Positions 4 through 9,561 of a stretch of DNA of 64,000 nt are shown piece after piece (position 1 is the stretch's first letter; each line of letters begins with the position of its first letter). The position numbers were made by a program, and so were the translations under genes. The notes below the pieces were generated by a model. The model saw only the letters and a list, made by a program, of their open reading frames with translations, did no database searches and had not been told where the DNA came from. Source of the stretch: an uncultured Ruficoccus sp. (GTDB lineage: Bacteria; Verrucomicrobiota; Verrucomicrobiia; Opitutales; Cerasicoccaceae); assembly GCA_965140785.1 (NCBI GenBank), contig OZ223481.1, positions 288,001 to 352,000 on the forward strand, read 5' to 3'.

Positions 4-3000
4 ATGAATTGGACTGCTACCCTATTAACTGTTGCTTGTTGCGCACCGTTGATATCCCAATCACTGCTCGCTGACAGCCTAGTGGCCACGGCCCCTACCG
101 AGTCTGTCGGGTCGAAATACCGGAAAATCGGACTCAATGGCTATCCGATGCCAGATCAGAAGCCGCAGAATGAGGCGGAAACTGATTATCAGGATGAGGA
201 AACCTATATCGATGCGCTAGATCTCACATTGCGCCACAGTGTAACGGATATTTATATTCCCATTCCCGGCAGTGACCTATCGCTATCAGTGCGAAGAAAT
301 TACAGACCGGAAACGTGGAGTGACCCAGAGGCGCAGTACTTTCTACCCGGTGAGGCCCCTGAGGATGCTTTCGGTGCTTGCTGGTCGACCAATTTGACGC
401 CTCATGTCAAGATGGAGGCTACGCAAAGCTGCTTCGGCACAAGTAGCAGCTATAGTTTCACCCGGTACATTACAGTGGTTGATGAAAATGGGGCATCGCA
501 TCGGTTTCTCATGCTGCTTCCTTCTGGAAATAGCTATGAGTTTTGGACTCAAAGCGTACAAAGTCCTGAAGGTTGGTGGATGACCTTTGATTTGAACACA
601 ATACCAGACGATGCGCTTTTTTACCCCTATCCTTCTTCTGATGAGGCCTTGGATACTCTGCAAAGTAAATTGACCTATGATCCAAATGCGGAAGAACTTA
701 CTTTTACAAAGAAATACGGGACGACTATTGTTTTTTCAGATAGTGGGTTGGGGCTCGAGGATCAGTTGAAATATACTGAAGAGGAGAATTATCTAGGGAA
801 CGCAATTGATCAGTTTGGAATCACCAGACAGCAACTTGGTGATGTTTCTAATCACCCAAAGTTTGTCGAACCATTTGGTTCTATCAATCTAGCTCGTGGC
901 CCGTCTCCAGTTTCATCCATTACGAGGAAGTCGTATCGTTATTTTAGGGCAGTATCTATTCAGGATCGCAATGGAAATTTCCTAAATTATTCTTATGATT
1001 CGGATAATTATACTCTGGTTCCAAATCACATATTTCTTAACGAGTCTATATTTCATGCGATCACGGTCCATCTGTCGCCAGGGAATACATTGCCTATATT
1101 AAGTGTTGAAGATCCATTGGGTAATGTAATAAGTTATGTATACAATGAAATTGGGTATACTTACATGGAAGCTAATGTAAGTTATGATAGGCCAATTGCT
1201 GTGCTAGATTATGTCGAAAAATCAGGCCCGGATGGTATAGAATGTAAGACAGATTATGACTACGTTTACAGCTTGGAGGCGGACCAAACACCACAGTACC
1301 TACAACCAATACGCGCTACAGGAAGCTTGAATCCTAAAGCTTATTGGAAGGAGCTTCCTGCCAGTCATATAGACATTGAGTCCATATCACAGATTGTGCC
1401 GGACGGCGCAGATGATGTTGAAGAGTATGAATACGCTTTTGAGTATGTGTTCAATGACCATATGGAGTCCTATGAAATAAATGATTCACCATATTCGCCT
1501 TTTATCGGTTACTATCAGTCCATTGGCCTTCCATCCCAAGTGTCGGCAGTCACCCTGCCCAATGGTTCGGAAGCAACATTTACATCTTATGGTCAGGTGA
1601 AGGCGGGTTTTGCGCACGGCGCCGGTGTAGAAACATTCGTTGATGGATACTTAGTGCCGAATGTGACTATCGTGGGTGATCGCGAAACTGTTGTTATCGA
1701 TACGGAAGGCAATGAACGGACATATCGATTTAAAAATTACGACTACATCAAATTGTACGAATATTTTACGGCTATCCCCAATTACCGTAACTTAAGAACC
1801 CCGCCTACGATCCTGTTTTATGAACTGATGGAGATCGTCCATCCGGGTAACCTTGTCGAGAAAGTTGTCTATGATAGTGAAGTTGGTAGCATGCCTATTG
1901 AGGTTTACGATGTTTACGGAAATAAAACTACTTTTGAATACGGTGAGCCTATCGAGGCTAATACGACTGTCCTGGGGGTAAACGGACAGAATAATACTTT
2001 TTCTGCCTACAGCCCCGACCCAACAAAGCAAATCAATGCGCTGGATGATGAGCAGGTCTTTGCCTACGATGTGGATCTGGATGGTGTCGCGCTGCATGCC
2101 CCTGCGGATTCATACCATCTGATGACAACGTTCATCGACGAGGAAAACCGCATAACATATACTCCTGTCGATGCATTGGGGCGTCGTGAGACTCAGGAAA
2201 TATATCAGCCGGATGGCTCAGGCGGTCATGAGCTTGTCCAGCGAACCCAGTATGAATATGGGCAAGACTTTGGTGGTATTGTCAAATACAAGGGTGTGGT
2301 GACGAGAGAGACCTTGGAGTCGCTTCCCGGGGATCCTGATTGGGCGGAGGATTTGGTAACCGAGTACACCTTGTACGATGAGGGGGAGGCGAATGGCTTT
2401 CCGGGTAAGATAAAGGAAATGACTGTCGATCCGGGAGGGCTGAATCTCAAGACAGTTTATACCTATGATGCGAACGGCAATCGGACATCGATGACGTCGC
2501 CACGTGCTTTTGATACCGCCGATCCGCTCTATGGGGGAAATTTTACGACCTACTATGTGTATGATGCCCGAAATCGCTTGACGGATATTGTTTATCCGCC
2601 GGCCTCAAGTGCGACTGATATGGGCGCGCCTCGCACGACCTATGTCTATGATTGGCGTGGGAAACAGGTTGGGGTGATTGACGAGGAGGGGGGCGTCACG
2701 GTTAAGCACTATGACGCACTGGGACGGCAAATTAAGGAGATTGTCGTCATGGGGCCTGCGTCCGGTTTTGATACGAGTGACCCCCAGACGTTTCTGTCAT
2801 ACACTCCCGATCAAGACGGGGTGATGCCAGACGATATCGTGACCTCGATGACGTATAATAATTTAAATGCAAAGCTGACGGAGACTGATCCGAATGGGAA
2901 CGTGACCGAGTTTTTTTATGACGATTTAAACCGCGTCATCGCCACCCGAAAGAGCACTGTCCGGGAAGTTGATTATACCAATGCGCAGGATCGTAATGTT

Positions 3001-6000
3001 CAGCCCATCACGTGGTTTTACTACGGGGAAAATAGCGGTTCGGGATCGATTTTTAAGGGGGAATCCTTCAAGCCAACTCATACGATTGATATGCGTGGCT
3101 ATCTGACGGTGGCCGAGTACGACGAGCTTTATCGATCGACGGCGGTTGCCCAGCAGTATGATCATCCGGTTAATATTACATCGCTTGATCCGCATGTCTT
3201 TCCATTAACCCCTCCAAGTATCGGTAGTCTGGCAGCCGCTGACTATGCTGTGACTACTTACACCTATGATGATGTCGGTAACCCCTTAACGGTTACGGAC
3301 GATTTAGGTAAGACGACAACGACACAGTACGATGCGCTTAATCGTCCAGTGAAAGTTATTTTCCAAGATACTTCTGAAGCTGAAACCAGGTACACATCCA
3401 CCGGGCTGAAGTATGAAAATGAAGATGAGCTAGACCGTTTGACGACAACGGAGTATGACGCAGCAGGACGAGCTGTTGCTGTCCTTCAACCGACGGTGTT
3501 CGATGCTGCCGCTGGCCAAGACGACACTCCGGAGACCACACAGGCCTATGATGCCAATGGCAATATGATTGCCATGACCAACCCATTGGAGGCCACTTGG
3601 AACTATGAATATGATGTGCGCGATCGCCGTATCAAAGAAATATTACCCGCGGTCGATTACATCAATGAGGCCGGAGGCTGGAGTGACGATAATCCTGTTC
3701 GGCCGGAGATTGAAACGACCTACGATAACGTAGGAAACGTGATTGCCGTCACTGATCCGCGCGATAAAACAACCCACACCCGCTACGACCCTGCGAAGCG
3801 ACCGATTTTTGTCATTTCGCCGTTGGTGGCTCTGGCCGACTCGAGCTCGCTTCGTCCGGTGGCGATTACCGAGTATGACCTCAACGGGAACATTCTTTAC
3901 CAGAAAACGGGTAGCTTGTCCGCTGGGGCTGATCCTGCTGAGGATACGCCTTCCGAGGTGCGGACAGAGGTTACGAACACCTGGGATGCGCTGAACCGGC
4001 TCACTGCCACAGAGGATGCGAATGCGATCGTGGTGCAAAATACCTACGACCTGGCCGGGAACCTGACGTCTGTCACAGACGGGGAGGAGCAGGTGACGAA
4101 ATTCGAATACGATGGGCTCAACCGCAATACCGTCACCGAGTACGCCGATGGCGAGCAGAAGGTTGTTGCGTTTAATGGGGTTAATCAGGTCACGCGCACG
4201 GATGAAAACGGGGTCGTCACCCGCTATGGCTACGATGACCGTCACCGCCTGGAAACAGTCGATTACGAGGACGATAGCTCCGTTGACAGAAGTTACACCT
4301 ACGACCTGGTAGGTAATATCCTCGGCGTGGAGGAGTCCGGTGACCATGGCGATTTGCGGAAGGTGAAGTATGTCTATGACGGTCTTAACCGCATTGGTGG
4401 GGAGAAGTCGGCCGGGCTCTGGCACGTGTACCGGTATGATTTGGCGGGTAACAGGTTGTTTGCGGGATACGGGGCTGCCCTGAGCAGTGATCCGGCTACC
4501 GTGGAGGCTGCTTACCAGGTGTCCTCGTCCGAGTTTGATACGCAGCTTCGCTCGACCTATGACGCGTTGAATCGCACCGCCACGATCTATGAGGATACTG
4601 ATGGTGACGGCACCTACACGACCGGCGAGCGGGAGAGTGGCTACCGTTATGACCTGGCGGGAAATATCCGGCAGAAGCTTCAGGCTAACGGGCACATCGT
4701 GCTCAAAACCTACGATGCGCTCGGGCGCGCCTCGGTCATCACGGGGCCCAATGGCACCGATACGCAGCCCCTCTACCGTTACGCTAACTTTTACGATATC
4801 TACGGCAACCTCAAGCGCATCGAGGAAACCTACCCCAGTGCGGCTGCGAAGATCGATGACCGCACGGTGACCAACACCTACGACGCGTCTAATCGCCTGG
4901 AGGTCGAGTCCATCACCCAGGGGAGCGACACGATTACCACGACCTACGCCTATGACGACGCGAACAACCGCGTGCTGCGCGAAGTGACGACCAACGAGAC
5001 TGTCGATGAGCGCAAGCGCTACGTGTATGAGAACGACCTGAACCAGCTCACCTACTGGTATGAGGACTGGGACGACGATGGCGCCTGGGATGAGGACACG
5101 GAGGTCAAGGTCGGCTTCACCTACGACGACAATGGCAACCGCGTCACGAGTACGCGGGTCGATGGCTCGTCCACGACCACGGTCACCTATGGCTATGACT
5201 GGGAAAACCGCCTGCTGAGTTTGGCTGAGGAGAAGCTGGTCTCCAATCAGGTCAACCTGCACGCCGGCACGCTGGCCACCGGGGAGCCGACGGCTGTCGT
5301 GACCTATCACTTTGTCGAAAATCAGGCCTATGCCTACGCCTACGATTATCGTACCCGGCGCGTGCTCCGGGACGAGTCCGGGGCGGACGGGGATTTGACG
5401 TATATTGTTTTCTCGGGCGGCACCAGCGCCCAGGAGTACACCGAGGCCGGGAGCGTGCCCGGTCTGGACGGAGCTGACACGCTGGCTGTCCAGTATGTGC
5501 GCGGGAGCGACTATGGGGGTGGCGTGGGGGGCATTCTTTATACCTTGCGCTCGGGGTCGGCCTCCTTTAAGCATTACAACAGTCGGGGCGACGTTGTTGC
5601 CGCGACCGATGGTTCTGGTTCTTTGACTTATCAGGCGGCTTACGAAGCCTACGGCAAGCACGGGGATACGTCTTCGTCGCAGGAGTGGGGCGATACGAGC
5701 GACCGCCAGCAGGCCAACACCAAAGACGAAGACCCGACGGGACTCCTGAACGAAGGCTTCCGCTACCGCGACCTGGAAACGGGCACCTTCATCACCCGCG
5801 ACCCACTCGGTTTCGTTGACGGCCCCAATGTCTACACCTACGTCAACCAGAATCCCTGGACCAAGTTCGACCCACAAGGGCTGGAGAAAAAGAAAGACAA
5901 AAAGAAACCAGAGCAGGAGGCTGATGGTAGTTCAAGCACTCAGGATGTGAAGACTGATAGTGTTGATGCGGGTACAAATCAATCTCCATCGGACTCAACG

Positions 6001-6615
6001 GATGCTACATCTGAAAAGGTCGGTAAGTTTAACGCTGCTACATCTGAGGCGACGAAAGCAAATGATTCCTCGGAATCTGCACGTTCTGAGGCAGAGCCAT
6101 GGATAAATGAAGTCCAGTTGTTTGGCGGGATAACAGGTACGATTGGGAAATTTATGTATGCTCATGGCGAGACTAACTTGGGAGTCTCAGTGCCGACATA
6201 TTCTGATGGCATTTTAAATACCATTTTGGATACAAAGTTATTTTTTCATGCTCAAGGAGCACTTATGGGTGGCGTTGGACCAGCTGCTGAACTTGGTGGG
6301 CAATTTGGAGGGGGACTGTCCTTCGATGATGTGGAATCAGGTTTATCTACGTTTAATACCATTCATTGTGAGGGACAAGGGGGTGTTGGCAGTACTTTTG
6401 GTATGGCCGTAGATGTCGACATTGAAAATACAGCTTTTTCAGGAGGAAAAGGAAGAGTTGAGGTTGGTGCTTCTGCTTATGGTGCTGCTGGGGCAGCAAA
6501 AAATGTTATGGTAGTAACCCCATCCTTAAGGGAGATATCGGATGCGTCTATAAAGGCACAAACCCAAATACCACTCATGTTACCATTGTGGAATCTGTTT
6601 GGAGGGGATGAGTGA
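4..6615 (+). CDS. RHS/YD-repeat polymorphic toxin with N-terminal signal peptide and variable C-terminal domain
   Basis: 2203-aa ORF; many YDxxGN/YDALNR repeats; Rhs core end FITRDPLGFVDGPNVYTYVNQNPWTKFDPQGL (DPxG at 5869-5880); hydrophobic N-terminus. Confidence 0.95.
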   Translation: MNWTATLLTVACCAPLISQSLLADSLVATAPTESVGSKYRKIGLNGYPMPDQKPQNEAETDYQDEETYIDALDLTLRHSVTDIYIPIPGSDLSLSVRRNYRPETWSDPEAQYFLPGEAPEDAFGACWSTNLTPHVKMEATQSCFGTSSSYSFTRYITVVDENGASHRFLMLLPSGNSYEFWTQSVQSPEGWWMTFDLNTIPDDALFYPYPSSDEALDTLQSKLTYDPNAEELTFTKKYGTTIVFSDSGLGLEDQLKYTEEENYLGNAIDQFGITRQQLGDVSNHPKFVEPFGSINLARGPSPVSSITRKSYRYFRAVSIQDRNGNFLNYSYDSDNYTLVPNHIFLNESIFHAITVHLSPGNTLPILSVEDPLGNVISYVYNEIGYTYMEANVSYDRPIAVLDYVEKSGPDGIECKTDYDYVYSLEADQTPQYLQPIRATGSLNPKAYWKELPASHIDIESISQIVPDGADDVEEYEYAFEYVFNDHMESYEINDSPYSPFIGYYQSIGLPSQVSAVTLPNGSEATFTSYGQVKAGFAHGAGVETFVDGYLVPNVTIVGDRETVVIDTEGNERTYRFKNYDYIKLYEYFTAIPNYRNLRTPPTILFYELMEIVHPGNLVEKVVYDSEVGSMPIEVYDVYGNKTTFEYGEPIEANTTVLGVNGQNNTFSAYSPDPTKQINALDDEQVFAYDVDLDGVALHAPADSYHLMTTFIDEENRITYTPVDALGRRETQEIYQPDGSGGHELVQRTQYEYGQDFGGIVKYKGVVTRETLESLPGDPDWAEDLVTEYTLYDEGEANGFPGKIKEMTVDPGGLNLKTVYTYDANGNRTSMTSPRAFDTADPLYGGNFTTYYVYDARNRLTDIVYPPASSATDMGAPRTTYVYDWRGKQVGVIDEEGGVTVKHYDALGRQIKEIVVMGPASGFDTSDPQTFLSYTPDQDGVMPDDIVTSMTYNNLNAKLTETDPNGNVTEFFYDDLNRVIATRKSTVREVDYTNAQDRNVQPITWFYYGENSGSGSIFKGESFKPTHTIDMRGYLTVAEYDELYRSTAVAQQYDHPVNITSLDPHVFPLTPPSIGSLAAADYAVTTYTYDDVGNPLTVTDDLGKTTTTQYDALNRPVKVIFQDTSEAETRYTSTGLKYENEDELDRLTTTEYDAAGRAVAVLQPTVFDAAAGQDDTPETTQAYDANGNMIAMTNPLEATWNYEYDVRDRRIKEILPAVDYINEAGGWSDDNPVRPEIETTYDNVGNVIAVTDPRDKTTHTRYDPAKRPIFVISPLVALADSSSLRPVAITEYDLNGNILYQKTGSLSAGADPAEDTPSEVRTEVTNTWDALNRLTATEDANAIVVQNTYDLAGNLTSVTDGEEQVTKFEYDGLNRNTVTEYADGEQKVVAFNGVNQVTRTDENGVVTRYGYDDRHRLETVDYEDDSSVDRSYTYDLVGNILGVEESGDHGDLRKVKYVYDGLNRIGGEKSAGLWHVYRYDLAGNRLFAGYGAALSSDPATVEAAYQVSSSEFDTQLRSTYDALNRTATIYEDTDGDGTYTTGERESGYRYDLAGNIRQKLQANGHIVLKTYDALGRASVITGPNGTDTQPLYRYANFYDIYGNLKRIEETYPSAAAKIDDRTVTNTYDASNRLEVESITQGSDTITTTYAYDDANNRVLREVTTNETVDERKRYVYENDLNQLTYWYEDWDDDGAWDEDTEVKVGFTYDDNGNRVTSTRVDGSSTTTVTYGYDWENRLLSLAEEKLVSNQVNLHAGTLATGEPTAVVTYHFVENQAYAYAYDYRTRRVLRDESGADGDLTYIVFSGGTSAQEYTEAGSVPGLDGADTLAVQYVRGSDYGGGVGGILYTLRSGSASFKHYNSRGDVVAATDGSGSLTYQAAYEAYGKHGDTSSSQEWGDTSDRQQANTKDEDPTGLLNEGFRYRDLETGTFITRDPLGFVDGPNVYTYVNQNPWTKFDPQGLEKKKDKKKPEQEADGSSSTQDVKTDSVDAGTNQSPSDSTDATSEKVGKFNAATSEATKANDSSESARSEAEPWINEVQLFGGITGTIGKFMYAHGETNLGVSVPTYSDGILNTILDTKLFFHAQGALMGGVGPAAELGGQFGGGLSFDDVESGLSTFNTIHCEGQGGVGSTFGMAVDVDIENTAFSGGKGRVEVGASAYGAAGAAKNVMVVTPSLREISDASIKAQTQIPLMLPLWNLFGGDE

Positions 6616-6818
6616 TGAAAACACTTATATCAGCATATATATTCTCTGGATGTCCGTTTTTGCTTATCGCTGTTTTTATTCTTATTGCTGGCGATGGTAA
6701 GCAATTAGGGATTGCAGCTTTATTCTTGGTGATTTTTTTAATTTTCCCATTGATTCCTTATTCTAGCGCTAGGCGTAAGATCAAGAATGATAAGAATAAC
6801 ACCAACGGCAGAACCTAA
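6615..6818 (+). CDS. Small two-TM protein, putative cognate immunity protein of the Rhs toxin
   Basis: TGATG overlap with the Rhs stop codon; two hydrophobic segments and a basic tail; AT-rich like the toxin tip. Confidence 0.7.
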   Translation: MKTLISAYIFSGCPFLLIAVFILIAGDGKQLGIAALFLVIFLIFPLIPYSSARRKIKNDKNNTNGRT

Positions 6819-6850
6819 CCCTATGGGTGCCAGACGAACCCGAAGAGGGG

Positions 6851-6882
6851 GAACCAGAAGGGGTCAGAACCAGAAGGGGTCA
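6851..6882 (+). repeat. 16-bp tandem direct duplication GAACCAGAAGGGGTCA x2
   Basis: Exact copies at 6851-6866 and 6867-6882. Confidence 0.9.
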
Positions 6883-6958
6883 TGTCAATAATTTAAATGT
6901 TGGTTGCTGTCTGACTTGTGTAGTTATTCTAAATTATTGACATGACCCCTTCGGGTTC
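6867..6958. repeat. Palindromic element, copy 1 (MITE/REP-like)
   Basis: Perfect 23-bp inverted repeat 6873-6895 / 6930-6952, extending to 28/29 bp (6867-6895 / 6930-6958), around a 34-bp spacer. Confidence 0.9.
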
Positions 6959-7139
6959 AACATCTACGTTCATGGCCGGCTTCGGTGTTGGATACAACAC
7001 CGAATTCAACGCTGATGCTAGTGGCGACTTAAGTCTTTCTGGGCATTATCTTACGATGCCATACGAGTGCGGAAGCCTTGCTGGATCAATTATGTCAGAG
7101 TCAAAAAAGAAATTTTCGGATAATGAGGATGATGAGTGA
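6942..7139 (+). pseudogene. Orphan, 5'-truncated toxin C-terminal remnant
   Basis: Open frame of Gly/aromatic beta-strand character ending ...DDE*; same stop/start junction as the main Rhs; its ATG lies inside the palindrome arm. Confidence 0.55.
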
Positions 7140-7453
7140 TGAATATATTGTTATATACGCTGATGCTTTTTTTTATGGGGTGGGTGCTCGTTTTTAAGGT
7201 TATTAGATTGAATGCATCTTTGTTTGGTGTTGTGTCTAATGTTCTTATGATGAATATAGCCGCGCTTTTGTGGGTTATTATTGGGTCTGTGTTAAAATTT
7301 CCTATATATACATTTAATGGGACGTTGAGTTCTTATGACTTCGTTGAGCCAGGACTGATTTTGTGTGTTATACTAACTCCTGTTAGCGTTATTTCTTTGG
7401 CTTATTTCAAATGGAAGAAGGGTGACGAGTTTACTATTCGAAAAAAGAAATGA
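7139..7453 (+). CDS. Three-TM membrane protein, putative orphan immunity protein
   Basis: TGATG overlap with the upstream remnant; three hydrophobic segments; Lys-rich C-terminus; very AT-rich. Confidence 0.7.
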   Translation: MNILLYTLMLFFMGWVLVFKVIRLNASLFGVVSNVLMMNIAALLWVIIGSVLKFPIYTFNGTLSSYDFVEPGLILCVILTPVSVISLAYFKWKKGDEFTIRKKK

Positions 7454-7501
7454 TTACGGCTTGATGCCCCCCTTCGCCTTCCGTCCCGTCCCTTGAGGCT
7501 T

Positions 7502-7633
7502 GCCATACGGGCTGGCACAACTCGTCATTATGTCAAAATTGCGTCGTGGGAGAGTGAGATTGGCGAACGAATCGACGTGGCCGCGAGGCCGAGCAACTTG
7601 GGCATAATGGTCCGTTGTGCGCGAGCGTATGGC
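7502..7633. repeat. Imperfect 41-bp inverted repeat with dif/Xer-like boxes
   Basis: Arms 7502-7542 and 7593-7633 match at 30/41 positions, in blocks GCCATACG, GCACAAC, CATTATG and TTGC; 50-nt loop. Confidence 0.75.
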
Positions 7634-7722
7634 CCGTTCTTTTGTTTGGGGGCGTGGCGGATGGCGGCAGGGGCTGCTCCACGGAATGGGGGTTGAATCC
7701 CCCCTCTCTTATGGGAAACCCT

Positions 7723-7799
7723 GAAGGGGTCATGTCAATAATTTAGAATAACTACACAAGTCAGACAATAACCAACATTTAAATTATTGACATGACCCC
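7723..7799. repeat. Palindromic element, copy 2, inverted relative to copy 1
   Basis: Equals the reverse complement of 6876-6952 with 2 mismatches in 77 bp. Confidence 0.9.
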
Positions 7800-8019
7800 G
7801 TGTTATTTGACCAGCACGGTTTCGCTTTCCTCCCGGGTCATTTCGGAGGGAAGCTCCAGCGGGAGTTTAATTCGCTTATTCCCTGATCGAGCCAAATGTA
7901 AAAATGTTGCCCAAAAACAGGGGGTTTTTCTGGATTTACCCGGATTTCGTTGGACTTGGGGTCTTGAGGGGTGTTGCCTTGCAAGTCCCTATTTATCAGG
8001 GAAATCCCCAGAAATAAAA

Positions 8020-8097
8020 TGGTCGGGGCGATAGGATTCGAACCTACGACCCTCTGCTCCCAAAGCAGATGCGCTAACCAGGCTGCGCTACGCCCCG
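8020..8097 (-). tRNA. tRNA-Pro (anticodon TGG)
   Basis: Reverse complement CGGGGCGTAGCGCAGCCTGGTTAGCGC...TCTGC-TTTGGGA-GCAGA...GGTTCGAATCC...CGCCCCGACCA; full cloverleaf with encoded CCA. Confidence 0.98.
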
Positions 8098-8345
8098 ACT
8101 CGGAACGGGCAACCATCCTCGCGGCGGGCCTGAAAGTCAATGCTTACTTGGCGCGGTACGTAGGGACGGCGAGGGGGGATGCGTGATTGGAGGTGGGCCG
8201 CCCGTTGCTGGTGGGTGTAATCGCAGGTGGGTGTTTGGGCCCAGGGCGGGGAAGAAATATCCTGGATATGAATAGGCTCCACAAAGCCCGCCCTCAGCGA
8301 GAATGCGGCTTGCCCCGGAGACACCGAAGGCTCTAGGCTCGCAAA

Positions 8346-9008
8346 ATGGACGACGTATCCGACTCGTTACTGGACGCTGGCGATGGCAACCGCGGCGGTA
8401 TGCCGATTTTTGTTCCCATCGCCCTGGCGTTAATCGGGGTGGCCCTCGGGGGTCTCGCGCTCTACTTCGCCCTGACCGGGGGCAAGGAGGACGAGTTCAG
8501 CGCGCGCCTGAGCGAGAGCGGCAGTCAGGTCGCCCAGCTCGAAAAGACGATCACCGAGCTCAACGCGCAAAACGAGAAACTCCGGCACGACTACGAGGCG
8601 CTGGAGAAACAGGTGCGTTCCATCGCCGGGCAGACCCAAAACGCGCTCAACCAGGTCGGGCAGGAAATTCTCAGCACGCGCCGCCAGATTTCCGACAACG
8701 GCGAGGCCTTGCGCAAGGTGGTCGAGGCCCTCAACAGCGGACAAGCCCGCCCGAGTGCTTCGCGGCCCGCTGCCGCCTCGGGGAGTGCTTCGAGCGCGAG
8801 CGGGTCGGCCACGGCCACCTCTCCCGCCGAGGAGGCCGCCACGTCGGGCACCCGCACGCATGTGATCGAGTCCGGGCAGACGTTCGCCAGCATTGCGCAG
8901 CAGTACGGCGTGCCCTTGCAGAAGGTGCTGGAGGCCAATCCCGACGTGGACCCGCGCCGCCTGCGCATCGGCCAGAAGATTCAGGTTCCGCTTCCTGGCA
9001 ATGAGTGA
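8346..9008 (+). CDS. Membrane-anchored coiled-coil protein with C-terminal LysM domain
   Basis: TM helix, heptad region, LysM motif HVIESGQTFASIAQQYGV...ANP...LRIGQKIQVP. Confidence 0.9.
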   Translation: MDDVSDSLLDAGDGNRGGMPIFVPIALALIGVALGGLALYFALTGGKEDEFSARLSESGSQVAQLEKTITELNAQNEKLRHDYEALEKQVRSIAGQTQNALNQVGQEILSTRRQISDNGEALRKVVEALNSGQARPSASRPAAASGSASSASGSATATSPAEEAATSGTRTHVIESGQTFASIAQQYGVPLQKVLEANPDVDPRRLRIGQKIQVPLPGNE

Positions 9009-9561
9009 GCGGGTCCCGAGTCTGTGGGTCCCCGGCGAGGAGAGCCTGCACGCGCAGTGCAAGGTCTATGACGTTTACAAGCGGCATTACCACCATCCGG
9101 GCGACAACCGCAGCGGCGATTTTTACATCATCCGCTGCAATGACTGGGTGCAGACAATCCCGCTGACCGGGGACGGCCAGGTCGTCCTCGTGCGCCAGTA
9201 CCGATTCGGCACGCAGGAGCTGTCCTGGGAGGTGCCCGGCGGCATCATCGACGACGGCGAGGAGCCGGTGGAGGCCGGGCTGCGCGAATTGGCCGAGGAG
9301 ACCGGCTACCGTTGCCGAAGCTCCCGCCTGCTGGCCCAGTGCTACCCGAATCCCGCCTTGCAGGAGAACCGGACCTTCTTCGTCCTGGCCGAGGGCTGCA
9401 CGCTTCAGAGCGGGCAAAATCTCGACCACCACGAGGAACTGGAGGTCAAGGTCTTCCCCATGGCCGAAGTCAGCGCCATGGCCCGCAACGGCGACATCAG
9501 CCACGCCCTCGCGATCAATTCCGTCTTTTTCCTGGAGAATTATCTGGGCTCACGGGCATAG
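9001..9561 (+). CDS. NUDIX hydrolase (ADP-ribose pyrophosphatase-like)
   Basis: Nudix box GGIIDDGEEPVEAGLRELAEETGY; LVRQYR motif; ATG at 9001. Confidence 0.92.
   Translation: MSERVPSLWVPGEESLHAQCKVYDVYKRHYHHPGDNRSGDFYIIRCNDWVQTIPLTGDGQVVLVRQYRFGTQELSWEVPGGIIDDGEEPVEAGLRELAEETGYRCRSSRLLAQCYPNPALQENRTFFVLAEGCTLQSGQNLDHHEELEVKVFPMAEVSAMARNGDISHALAINSVFFLENYLGSRA

Follow-up and report, generated by a model that had tools for sequence, protein, structure and literature searches.

Integrons and clusters of attC sites lacking integron-integrases (CALINs) hold promoterless, co-oriented gene cassettes, each with one imperfect palindrome that folds into a hairpin and is recognized as single-stranded DNA. 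Orphan modules of classical Rhs and contact-dependent growth inhibition (CDI) toxins keep a stretch of the toxin core for homologous recombination. Here we analyze a locus of an uncultured Ruficoccus sp. (Verrucomicrobiota; Opitutales) at which a Rhs toxin gene, its putative immunity gene and a truncated orphan module are punctuated by hairpin-forming palindromes, and we trace these palindromes to an element that encodes a Y1/HUH transposase. The locus lies in a stretch of 64,000 nucleotides (assembly GCA_965140785.1, contig OZ223481.1, positions 288,001–352,000 of the forward strand), which is called the window throughout and to which all coordinates without a contig refer.

Three described systems come closest. 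TIRtrons, or tyrosine transposases associated with terminal inverted repeats (TIRYTs), are genes resembling those for the transposases associated with repetitive extragenic palindromes (REPs), or RAYTs; they are flanked by long non-GTAG inverted repeats that share the motif GGGGWSAS, and further copies of these repeats are found in the genome singly, as dimers or in groups (Di Nocera et al. 2013, PMC3733652). In REPIN-RAYT systems (REPINs being REP doublets that form hairpins), inverted doublets fold into long hairpins and are presumed to be mobilized in trans (Bertels and Rainey, PMC5581495). The recombinase-associated rAID-1 arrays of Bacteroidales consist of co-oriented orphan immunity genes with a skewed, low GC content and repetitive intergenic sequence; they were described as "reminiscent of integrons", with a tyrosine recombinase present and the mechanism unknown (Ross et al., 10.1101/471110). 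Two open questions meet at the Ruficoccus locus, namely the purpose served by RAYT and TIRYT transposases with their repeats, and the way in which bacteria come to stockpile orphan immunity genes and spare toxin tips. It offers a comparable stockpile in a phylum other than that of the Bacteroidales arrays, punctuated by the cognate sites of a single-stranded-DNA transposase and with breakpoints at their tips, and thus a concrete, testable candidate for both the enzyme and the DNA site.

The palindromes are miniature copies of a Y1 transposase element

The genome from which the window comes (G000) is 4.36 Mb in size and was compared with four sister genomes (G001–G004). Behind the Rhs gene and its putative immunity gene, the window holds two palindromes, each a doublet of inverted arms, and a group of short tandem repeats:

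6836–6875, plus strand: tandem copies of the outer tip of the arm together with about 9 nt of flank (GAACCNGAA plus a GGGGTCA-like motif), found by repeat search
6876–6949, plus strand: doublet 1, composed of left arm, 36-nt loop and right arm, oriented like the genes
7726–7799, minus strand: doublet 2, of the same family, 74 nt, oriented against the cassette genes

The arms of doublet 1 measure 20 nt and can be extended to 29 nt at 97%; as single-stranded DNA the doublet folds at -28.3 kcal/mol, with a z score of -10.4 against shuffled sequences. Doublet 2 is its reverse complement (80 nt, 96%, with the loop orientation in agreement) and folds with a z score of -5.8. The 19-mer arm occurs four times in the window against 0.01 copies expected. 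An Rfam scan returned the tRNA only, a sub-threshold match to a miRNA precursor (22.6 against 100 bits) merely reflecting the hairpin. A preliminary description of this DNA had recognized the inverted pair of palindromes and the tandem end motifs, and all of them hold up. It had also placed a dif-like hairpin between the two doublets, which is not supported: the region 7490–7630 has a z score of -0.19, 85 of 200 shuffled sequences fold equally well, and the segment has no second copy in the genome.

The source of the palindromes is a 997-bp unit whose inverted ends are the palindrome arms and which encodes a protein of 308 amino acids (aa). The unit is present in two copies, both outside the window; contig C10 carries one, some 192 kb farther downstream, and contig C43 the other. 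The protein matches the Pfam family Y1_Tnp at 39.4 bits (cut-off 23), and the genome contains exactly two Y1_Tnp genes, both bounded by palindrome arms as terminal inverted repeats. The two transposase copies agree at 307 of 309 aligned positions, stop included. The units are alike from AA/GGGGTCA to GACCCC/TTCGGCT (the slash marks the arm tip) and unrelated beyond these points, which indicates that the unit moved recently as arm-gene-arm. In G003, doublets of 181 bp retain the 5' leader and first codons of the transposase gene, so doublets are internal-deletion derivatives of the unit. The window palindromes are thus non-autonomous miniature copies of a Y1-transposase element whose enzyme is encoded in trans. 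The preliminary description had noted that the window itself encodes no Y1 transposase, which is correct, and had proposed an HUH/Y1 enzyme acting in trans on cassettes; the two Y1_Tnp genes with the same arms supply that enzyme, a candidate only for the capture or movement of cassettes.

Homologs of the transposase (37–84% identity) were found at 32 loci in Verrucomicrobiota/Opitutales assemblies. Inverted arms flank 19 of the 27 homolog loci examined, and 15 of these 19 begin with GGGTCAG. Residues H62, H64, Y121, H123, N125 and P126 are invariant across 13 aligned homologs spanning the same range of identity, Y121 being presumably the catalytic tyrosine, and the protein carries a C-terminal extension of 180 aa.

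Comparison with described systems

The element resembles TIRtrons in most respects. Its transposase is a RAYT-like Y1 protein with the HUH motif (H62-Y-H64) and Y121, the gene lies within long terminal inverted repeats unrelated to GTAG REPs, and besides the 2 full units the genome has 12 doublets and 5 solo arms of the same repeats. The GGGGWSAS motif is present as GGGGTCAG in the C10 unit and most relatives; in the C43 unit and in the copies within the window the sequence is GGGGTCAT, which differs at the last position. Toxin/immunity joints, proximity to Rhs, tandem tips and cargo on the tip side are seen here and are not described in the passages of PMC3733652 that concern these elements. 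REPIN-RAYT systems share the hairpin doublets and a Y1/HUH transposase that has the same repeat, inverted, on either side. The differences from them are several: a single arm is not self-complementary (minimum free energy 0 kcal/mol) and has no GTAG at its ends, there are 12 doublets rather than tens to hundreds, two 99%-identical transposase copies stand at unrelated sites instead of one vertically inherited copy, and the protein has the 180-aa extension and falls under the REP_Tyr_transpos cut-off. Because the arm is not palindromic and lacks the GTAG tag, the element fits TIRYTs/TIRtrons rather than classical REP/RAYT systems.

On the side of the stockpile, the arrays described below contain, like the rAID-1 arrays, at least two co-oriented genes of low GC, immunity families among them, and the sequence between the genes is repetitive. 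The XerD-like recombinase that defines rAID-1 at the 5' end of the array was not found here; the repeats are those of a Y1 transposase, the phylum is another one, and the arrays are short (1–5 cassettes) and dispersed over 8 loci. Hairpin-forming repeats, one per cassette, and co-oriented cassettes are shared with integrons and CALINs. Integron attC sites have the core sites RYYYAAC ... GTTRRRY. The arms contain no such sites, neither IntI nor attI is present, and the candidate enzyme is an HUH transposase; the system is not an integron. A displaced tip fragment with an immunity gene downstream of the main toxin-immunity pair is what classical Rhs orphans also show, although the window orphan lacks the core up to DPxG and starts at a transposon arm. 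As a mobile element it belongs to the TIRtron/TIRYT kind and works like REPIN/RAYT, and the stockpile works like the rAID-1 arrays. Literature searches, as far as titles and the openings of abstracts among the papers listed show, found no link between Y1-transposase repeats and toxin/immunity cassette arrays, one of them behind a Rhs toxin.

Arms border low-GC islands that include immunity and toxin genes

The 19-nt arm has 26 matches in the genome at up to 2 mismatches, while a reversed control sequence has none. The copies fall into 8 loci, with doublets of 74–75 nt. Low-GC segments (400 bp, GC below 0.45) account for 4.8% of the genome, a background fraction inflated by blocks of 13–44 kb. 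Of the 31 arms found at up to 3 mismatches, 27 are no more than 150 bp away from such a segment, and the remaining 4 fall in the same 8 loci. The large blocks themselves have a GC of 0.23–0.39 in an assembly of 0.59 (C20:59701–93750, C39:275701–305850, C28:1–13050, C9:1–44150 and C41:1–20250) and probably represent contigs that are mis-binned or chimeric, or else large foreign elements.

The arm-bearing islands are short arrays of small open reading frames (ORFs), with one doublet per joint. Among 15 arm-linked ORFs, 5 score above a family cut-off, namely Imm30 (53.9 bits), DUF4274, Sel1, DUF3997 and HEPN, and two further ORFs match families below cut-off, including an AHH nuclease fragment. 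Only the window locus, 1 of the 8, has a Rhs gene. The cassettes are therefore not confined to the Rhs locus, 7 of the 8 arm loci being without Rhs. All four sister genomes searched contain the repeat (7, 7, 11 and 1 matches at up to 3 mismatches), and their arms again border low-GC cassettes: Imm22/DUF4284 (29.2 bits), DUF2750 (99.5 bits) and, below cut-off, an Imm74-like ORF. About 190 other low-GC islands carry no arm. As a control, ORFs were taken from arm-free low-GC islands of 600–10,000 bp, with one ORF inside the Rhs gene excluded, and 0 of 78 matched an immunity or polymorphic-toxin family; they include TIR-STAND, Mrr, restriction-modification, AbiU2, Abi_C, reverse transcriptase and phage Rep genes. 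The repeat is thus not simply found in any AT-rich DNA.

The arms also have a consistent polarity. Cassette-gene orientation is common to 11 of the 12 doublets, window doublet 2 being the only exception, and the lower-GC side is at the tip in 28 of 31 arms without a recognizable partner, a crude count that takes in arms with a decayed partner and related genomes. The flank outside the arm ends in GAA at 20 of 31 arms, and the palindrome accordingly extends a few bases beyond the 19-mer. In addition, 11 of 31 arms have 1–3 extra tip-like heptamers within 60 nt outside the tip, compared with 0.07 expected per arm, and these are usually tandem repeats of about 9–12 nt of flank plus GGGGTCA. Such tandem tips are likewise present in G002, G003 and at L115, a locus of another genome, with the repeat number varying among the G003 copies. 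The only explanation that we can offer for them is as a by-product of the element's own cleavage and joining.

Gene and homology breakpoints coincide with arm tips

In G000 and its relatives, the outer tip of the arm recurs as a breakpoint. At several loci an ORF starts inside the right arm, which supplies the ATG. One such ORF, at C39:143668, has residues 79–159 that are 77% identical over 81 aa to residues 514–594, in the C-terminal domain, of a 650-aa RHS-repeat protein, and the same residues also match the C-termini of Hcp-, PAAR-like- and FhaB-fused proteins. By these similarities the ORF is a genuine truncated Rhs-type toxin tip. It starts at an arm, and the abrupt start of a core-less orphan tip at the palindrome is thus a pattern that recurs outside the window. 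Within C39:143668–144442 the orphan tip is frameshifted at WPGGG, where the homology ends, and an overlapping +1 ORF of 193 aa, which may be the immunity gene, matches a Kelch-type family only weakly and below its cut-off (26.8 against 50). Next to the C10 unit, an integrase fragment that lacks profile positions 1–110 starts about 30 nt past the right arm.

Comparison across species was most direct next to a HAD-type gene, a locus chosen because the Rhs locus offers no clean empty site in the sister species: at the Rhs site the tRNA-Pro side is common to them and the left side is rearranged or different. In G000, a right arm lies 27 nt past the stop codon of the HAD-type gene and is followed by 3 cassettes, tandem tips, a left arm and about 30 decayed transposase codons. 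G002 has a right arm 14 nt past the stop, 1 different cassette and a left arm, and G001 has only a right-arm remnant 12 nt past the stop and no cassette. No arm is present in G003 and G004. Similarity between the species stops at CCCC/TT, exactly the arm tip. The preliminary description would have been refuted by a scattered palindrome with no link to variable cassettes or a recombinase and no breakpoints in orthologous loci. Searching the genome and its relatives for the palindrome and its flanking genes instead returned 8 loci, Y1 transposase units and immunity/toxin ORFs, with homology breaking at the tip.

Comparable arrangements stand behind other Rhs genes. In G003, the gene for a 2525-aa Rhs protein with a different tip precedes a small hydrophobic ORF that is likewise different; then come one tip copy, a left arm and a transposase gene with an internal deletion. 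At L115, a Rhs ORF (at least 1714 aa, with Rhs_assc_core at 79.6 bits) is followed by an ORF of 174 aa, then by two tandem tips, a left arm and a transposase only 37% identical to that of the window genome (REP_Tyr_transpos 63.1 bits). The L115 genome has 12 arms at 5 loci; on the tip side it shows, at the end of a contig, a second pair that by eye resembles toxin and immunity genes and has no Pfam family, a reverse-transcriptase/nitrilase gene framed as right arm, cargo, left arm, and a PIN pair.

Three observations concern individual arm loci. At L144 (G401), positions 6230–9256 encode a 1008-aa fusion of reverse transcriptase and CN-hydrolase (nitrilase). Its GC is below that of the surrounding sequence, and it lies between a right and a left arm whose tips face inwards. 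IS66-family elements lie at or inside the left arm or transposase remnant at L040 (G003:C4, 1–2400), L053 (G003:C51, 840–3150) and L143 (5688–7142); these insertions span two different genomes, and the G003 contigs end there. At L047 (G001:C1:1031000–1044000), a partial 3' half of tRNA-Pro (6203–6262, 93% identity over 60 nt) has an integrase-like ORF on one side and an array of two cassettes with doublets on the other, and looks like the attachment-site scar of an integrative island.

How the cassettes may turn over

Taken together, the palindromes are doublets of a TIRYT/TIRtron-type element, akin to RAYT/REPIN systems, at the joints of low-GC, horizontally acquired cassettes, with the outer arm tips (GAA/GGGGTCA) as recurrent breakpoints; probably, though by no means certainly, the cassettes turn over via tips and copies of the element. 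In this genus the cassettes would mostly be orphan immunity genes and truncated polymorphic-toxin tips. In such a scheme, doublet 1 would close the current Rhs tip-immunity module, and the orphan module would owe its start at an arm tip to a joint formed at that point. Acting in trans on the single-stranded hairpin, the transposase may spread doublets to sites with tip-like motifs. Cassettes could then be truncated, removed or exchanged either by cleavage at the tips or by homologous recombination and deletion between dispersed copies, and the element downstream of the Rhs immunity gene might serve as the right-hand anchor for a tip-immunity swap with the Rhs core as the left-hand one.

Several results weigh against this scheme. 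The transposase reaches 67.4 bits on NCBIfam REP_Tyr_transpos, under the cut-off of 80, and no solved structural relative was found by sequence or by profile. The window orphan ORF has no homolog, and its putative toxin nature is read from position and a shared 13-nt joint (see below). No cassette is present at two loci of this genome, and tip-to-tip "empty cassette" junctions are absent from it. Two public sequencing runs from one study cover the stretch as contigs that break at the repeats. In one of them, X1, a contig whose Rhs core end is a variant (10 differences over 93 nt) also shows a joint from 5867 to 6873 (30 nt on the short side), and further joints run from 6817 to 6874 and from 6954 to 6874/6877; all X1 joints involve a multi-copy repeat, and no conclusion follows from them. 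In the other, X2, no contig covers 7016–7722, which is equally uninformative. The sister genomes are related, so counts across them are not independent. In more distant genomes the low-GC neighbors are of the defense type (NACHT, SMODS, reverse transcriptase-nitrilase, PIN), with Band_7 genes also among the neighbors of transposase loci, and a Rhs core lies within 6 kb at only 1 of the 32 transposase loci of other genomes. The defense-type neighbors suggest that the link is to accessory "conflict" cargo and not to immunity genes as such.

A more active part for the enzyme is conceivable, in which the Y1 transposase cleaves tips in folded single-stranded DNA and joins foreign single strands to them, with cassettes excised and moved as units in the manner of integrons. 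The single repeat at each joint of co-oriented genes speaks for such capture, as do the cargo abutting the tip in 28 of 31 solo arms, the tandem tips and their excess over expectation, the frames of right arm, cargo and left arm in G000 (C12), G002 (C11) and G401 (L144), and the arrays that often end in a left arm with a transposase or its remnant. On the other hand, no circle, empty site or shared cassette was seen, and the two recent transposase copies moved as arm-gene-arm without cargo. Y1 transposases are known to move what lies between their ends, and the cargo here is outside the ends of the element. In G003 a doublet plus cassette is present twice, as capture would predict, but the duplicated segment includes the doublet and unequal homologous recombination explains it equally well. 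We consider capture of this kind unlikely, and take a similarly doubtful view of the broader proposal that TIRYT and hairpin arms form a single-stranded-DNA cassette platform in which the tip is cut, foreign DNA is joined and toxin-immunity or defense arrays are built and reshuffled. Were that platform real, it would amount to an integron-like system run by an HUH transposase rather than a tyrosine recombinase, it would give a function to a class of "domesticated" transposase that has none, and the element would be the right-hand border for tip-immunity swaps behind the Rhs toxin. No better a prospect is purely passive accumulation, with selfish miniature doublets surviving only in dispensable AT-rich acquired DNA and having no role in turnover. 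All arm loci are low-GC islands, the copy number is low (12 doublets) and the neighbors in distant genomes are assorted accessory genes, all as expected from this account. It does not explain why the arm-free islands hold different ORFs, why truncated genes start at the tip at several loci, why interspecies homology breaks there or why solo arms show such a strong orientation asymmetry. A link that proved only passive would still leave a clean example of the TIRtron family, with miniature derivatives, in Verrucomicrobiota.

The remaining two accounts seem much less probable. Opposed doublets with 96% complementarity over 80 nt could flip the 776-bp orphan module by homologous recombination, and doublet 2 is indeed the sole reversed doublet among the 12. 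No inverted joint was present among the public-run contigs, although contigs cannot exclude one, and the promoter logic of an invertible segment is not evident, with 4 promoter-like sites against 4.1 expected and hence no excess; we regard inversion as improbable. Least credible of all is a tyrosine-recombinase system (integron/CALIN attC or rAID-1-like) with the palindromes as recombination sites, which had been put forward alongside the HUH enzyme and which is not supported. Hairpin repeats between co-oriented low-GC cassettes would suit it, and two G001 arrays adjoin integrase-like ORFs. These ORFs, however, reach just 18.8 bits on Phage_int_M (cut-off 27) or match nothing. None of the 17 Phage_integrase matches in the genome stands intact beside an array, a truncated fragment being the only one that abuts an arm. 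Moreover, the arms are without the attC core consensus and are the ends of a Y1 transposase unit.

The Rhs gene and its neighbors in the window

The other features of the locus, from the Rhs core to the tRNA gene, are as follows:

4–5883, plus strand: Rhs core from the YD repeats to DPQGL, with RHS_repeat and Rhs_assc_core profile matches
5884–6615, plus strand: C-terminal Rhs tip, low-GC, glycine-rich, 244 aa, delimited by the GC drop and without a family
6615–6818, plus strand: putative immunity gene 1, about 67 aa, hydrophobic, with what look like two transmembrane segments, its function assigned by position only
6950–7139, plus strand: orphan ORF remnant, putative 3' end of a toxin tip, starting at the right-arm tip of doublet 1
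7139–7453, plus strand: putative immunity gene 2, about 104 aa, with about 3 hydrophobic segments and a TGATGA overlap as in module 1
7454–7725, no strand: unique spacer of 272 nt, GC-rich (0.52–0.59) by GC profile and unique in the genome
8020–8097, minus strand: tRNA-Pro(TGG), whole gene, with its 3' end facing the locus

The Rhs ORF (4–6615) shows the features of a Rhs polymorphic toxin, namely YD repeats, a core ending in DPxGL and a variable tip. It matches RHS_repeat at 162.7 bits (Pfam) and Rhs_assc_core at residues 1880–1960 (45.5 bits, cut-off 32.5), and it is the sole gene of the genome with an Rhs_assc_core match. The cleavage site named in the preliminary description is confirmed as DPQGL, encoded at 5869–5883, and GC drops just past it from about 0.60 to 0.43–0.49. 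The 244-aa tip has no Pfam or NCBIfam family, a search for homologs among long proteins returned only the tip itself, and scores in a protein atlas were at most 0.85 and unusable. The N-terminal part of the gene (401–2100; C10:288401–290100 of G000) is itself low in GC (0.43), and the delivery end of the Rhs protein may have been exchanged too.

The ATG of putative immunity gene 1, which has no Pfam family, overlaps the TGA of the Rhs tip. The orphan ORF is called as 6942–7139, its start codon at 6942 being borrowed from the arm. As had been claimed, it shares no homology with the Rhs core (best BLASTP E value against the whole Rhs protein 0.82) and starts abruptly at the palindrome. Among 401 order-level genomes it has 3 weak matches only (E 0.003–0.008); two matches among 1.84 billion representative proteins were long tandem-repeat proteins with 17–22 matched stretches and were taken as artefacts. 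A homolog search with putative immunity gene 2 returned only itself, and neither the Rhs tip and the orphan ORF nor the two putative immunity proteins could be aligned with each other. The stop/start joint GATGAGTGATGAA, with TGA and ATG overlapping, is nevertheless identical in the main and orphan pairs (6607–6619 and 7131–7143), and this 13-mer has just 2 copies in the genome. The identical joint suggests that the two modules are distant relatives in organization despite their non-aligning proteins. The reading of the orphan as a truncated tip with a second immunity gene is supported only indirectly, by position and this joint; neither ORF has a real homolog. The possibility that right arm and flank mimic DPxG coding sequence was considered and rejected, the orphan ORFs lying in another frame.

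On the right, the locus ends at the tRNA-Pro gene, of which only the 3' end had been noted before and which proves to be whole. A direct repeat of the tRNA 3' end was not found in this genome. The gene and those on its right are syntenic in the sister species and mark the edge of the variable region. Finally, an antisense ORF of 744 aa runs within the Rhs gene on the minus strand (3643–5877); in all likelihood it is the artefact that GC-rich coding DNA commonly gives.

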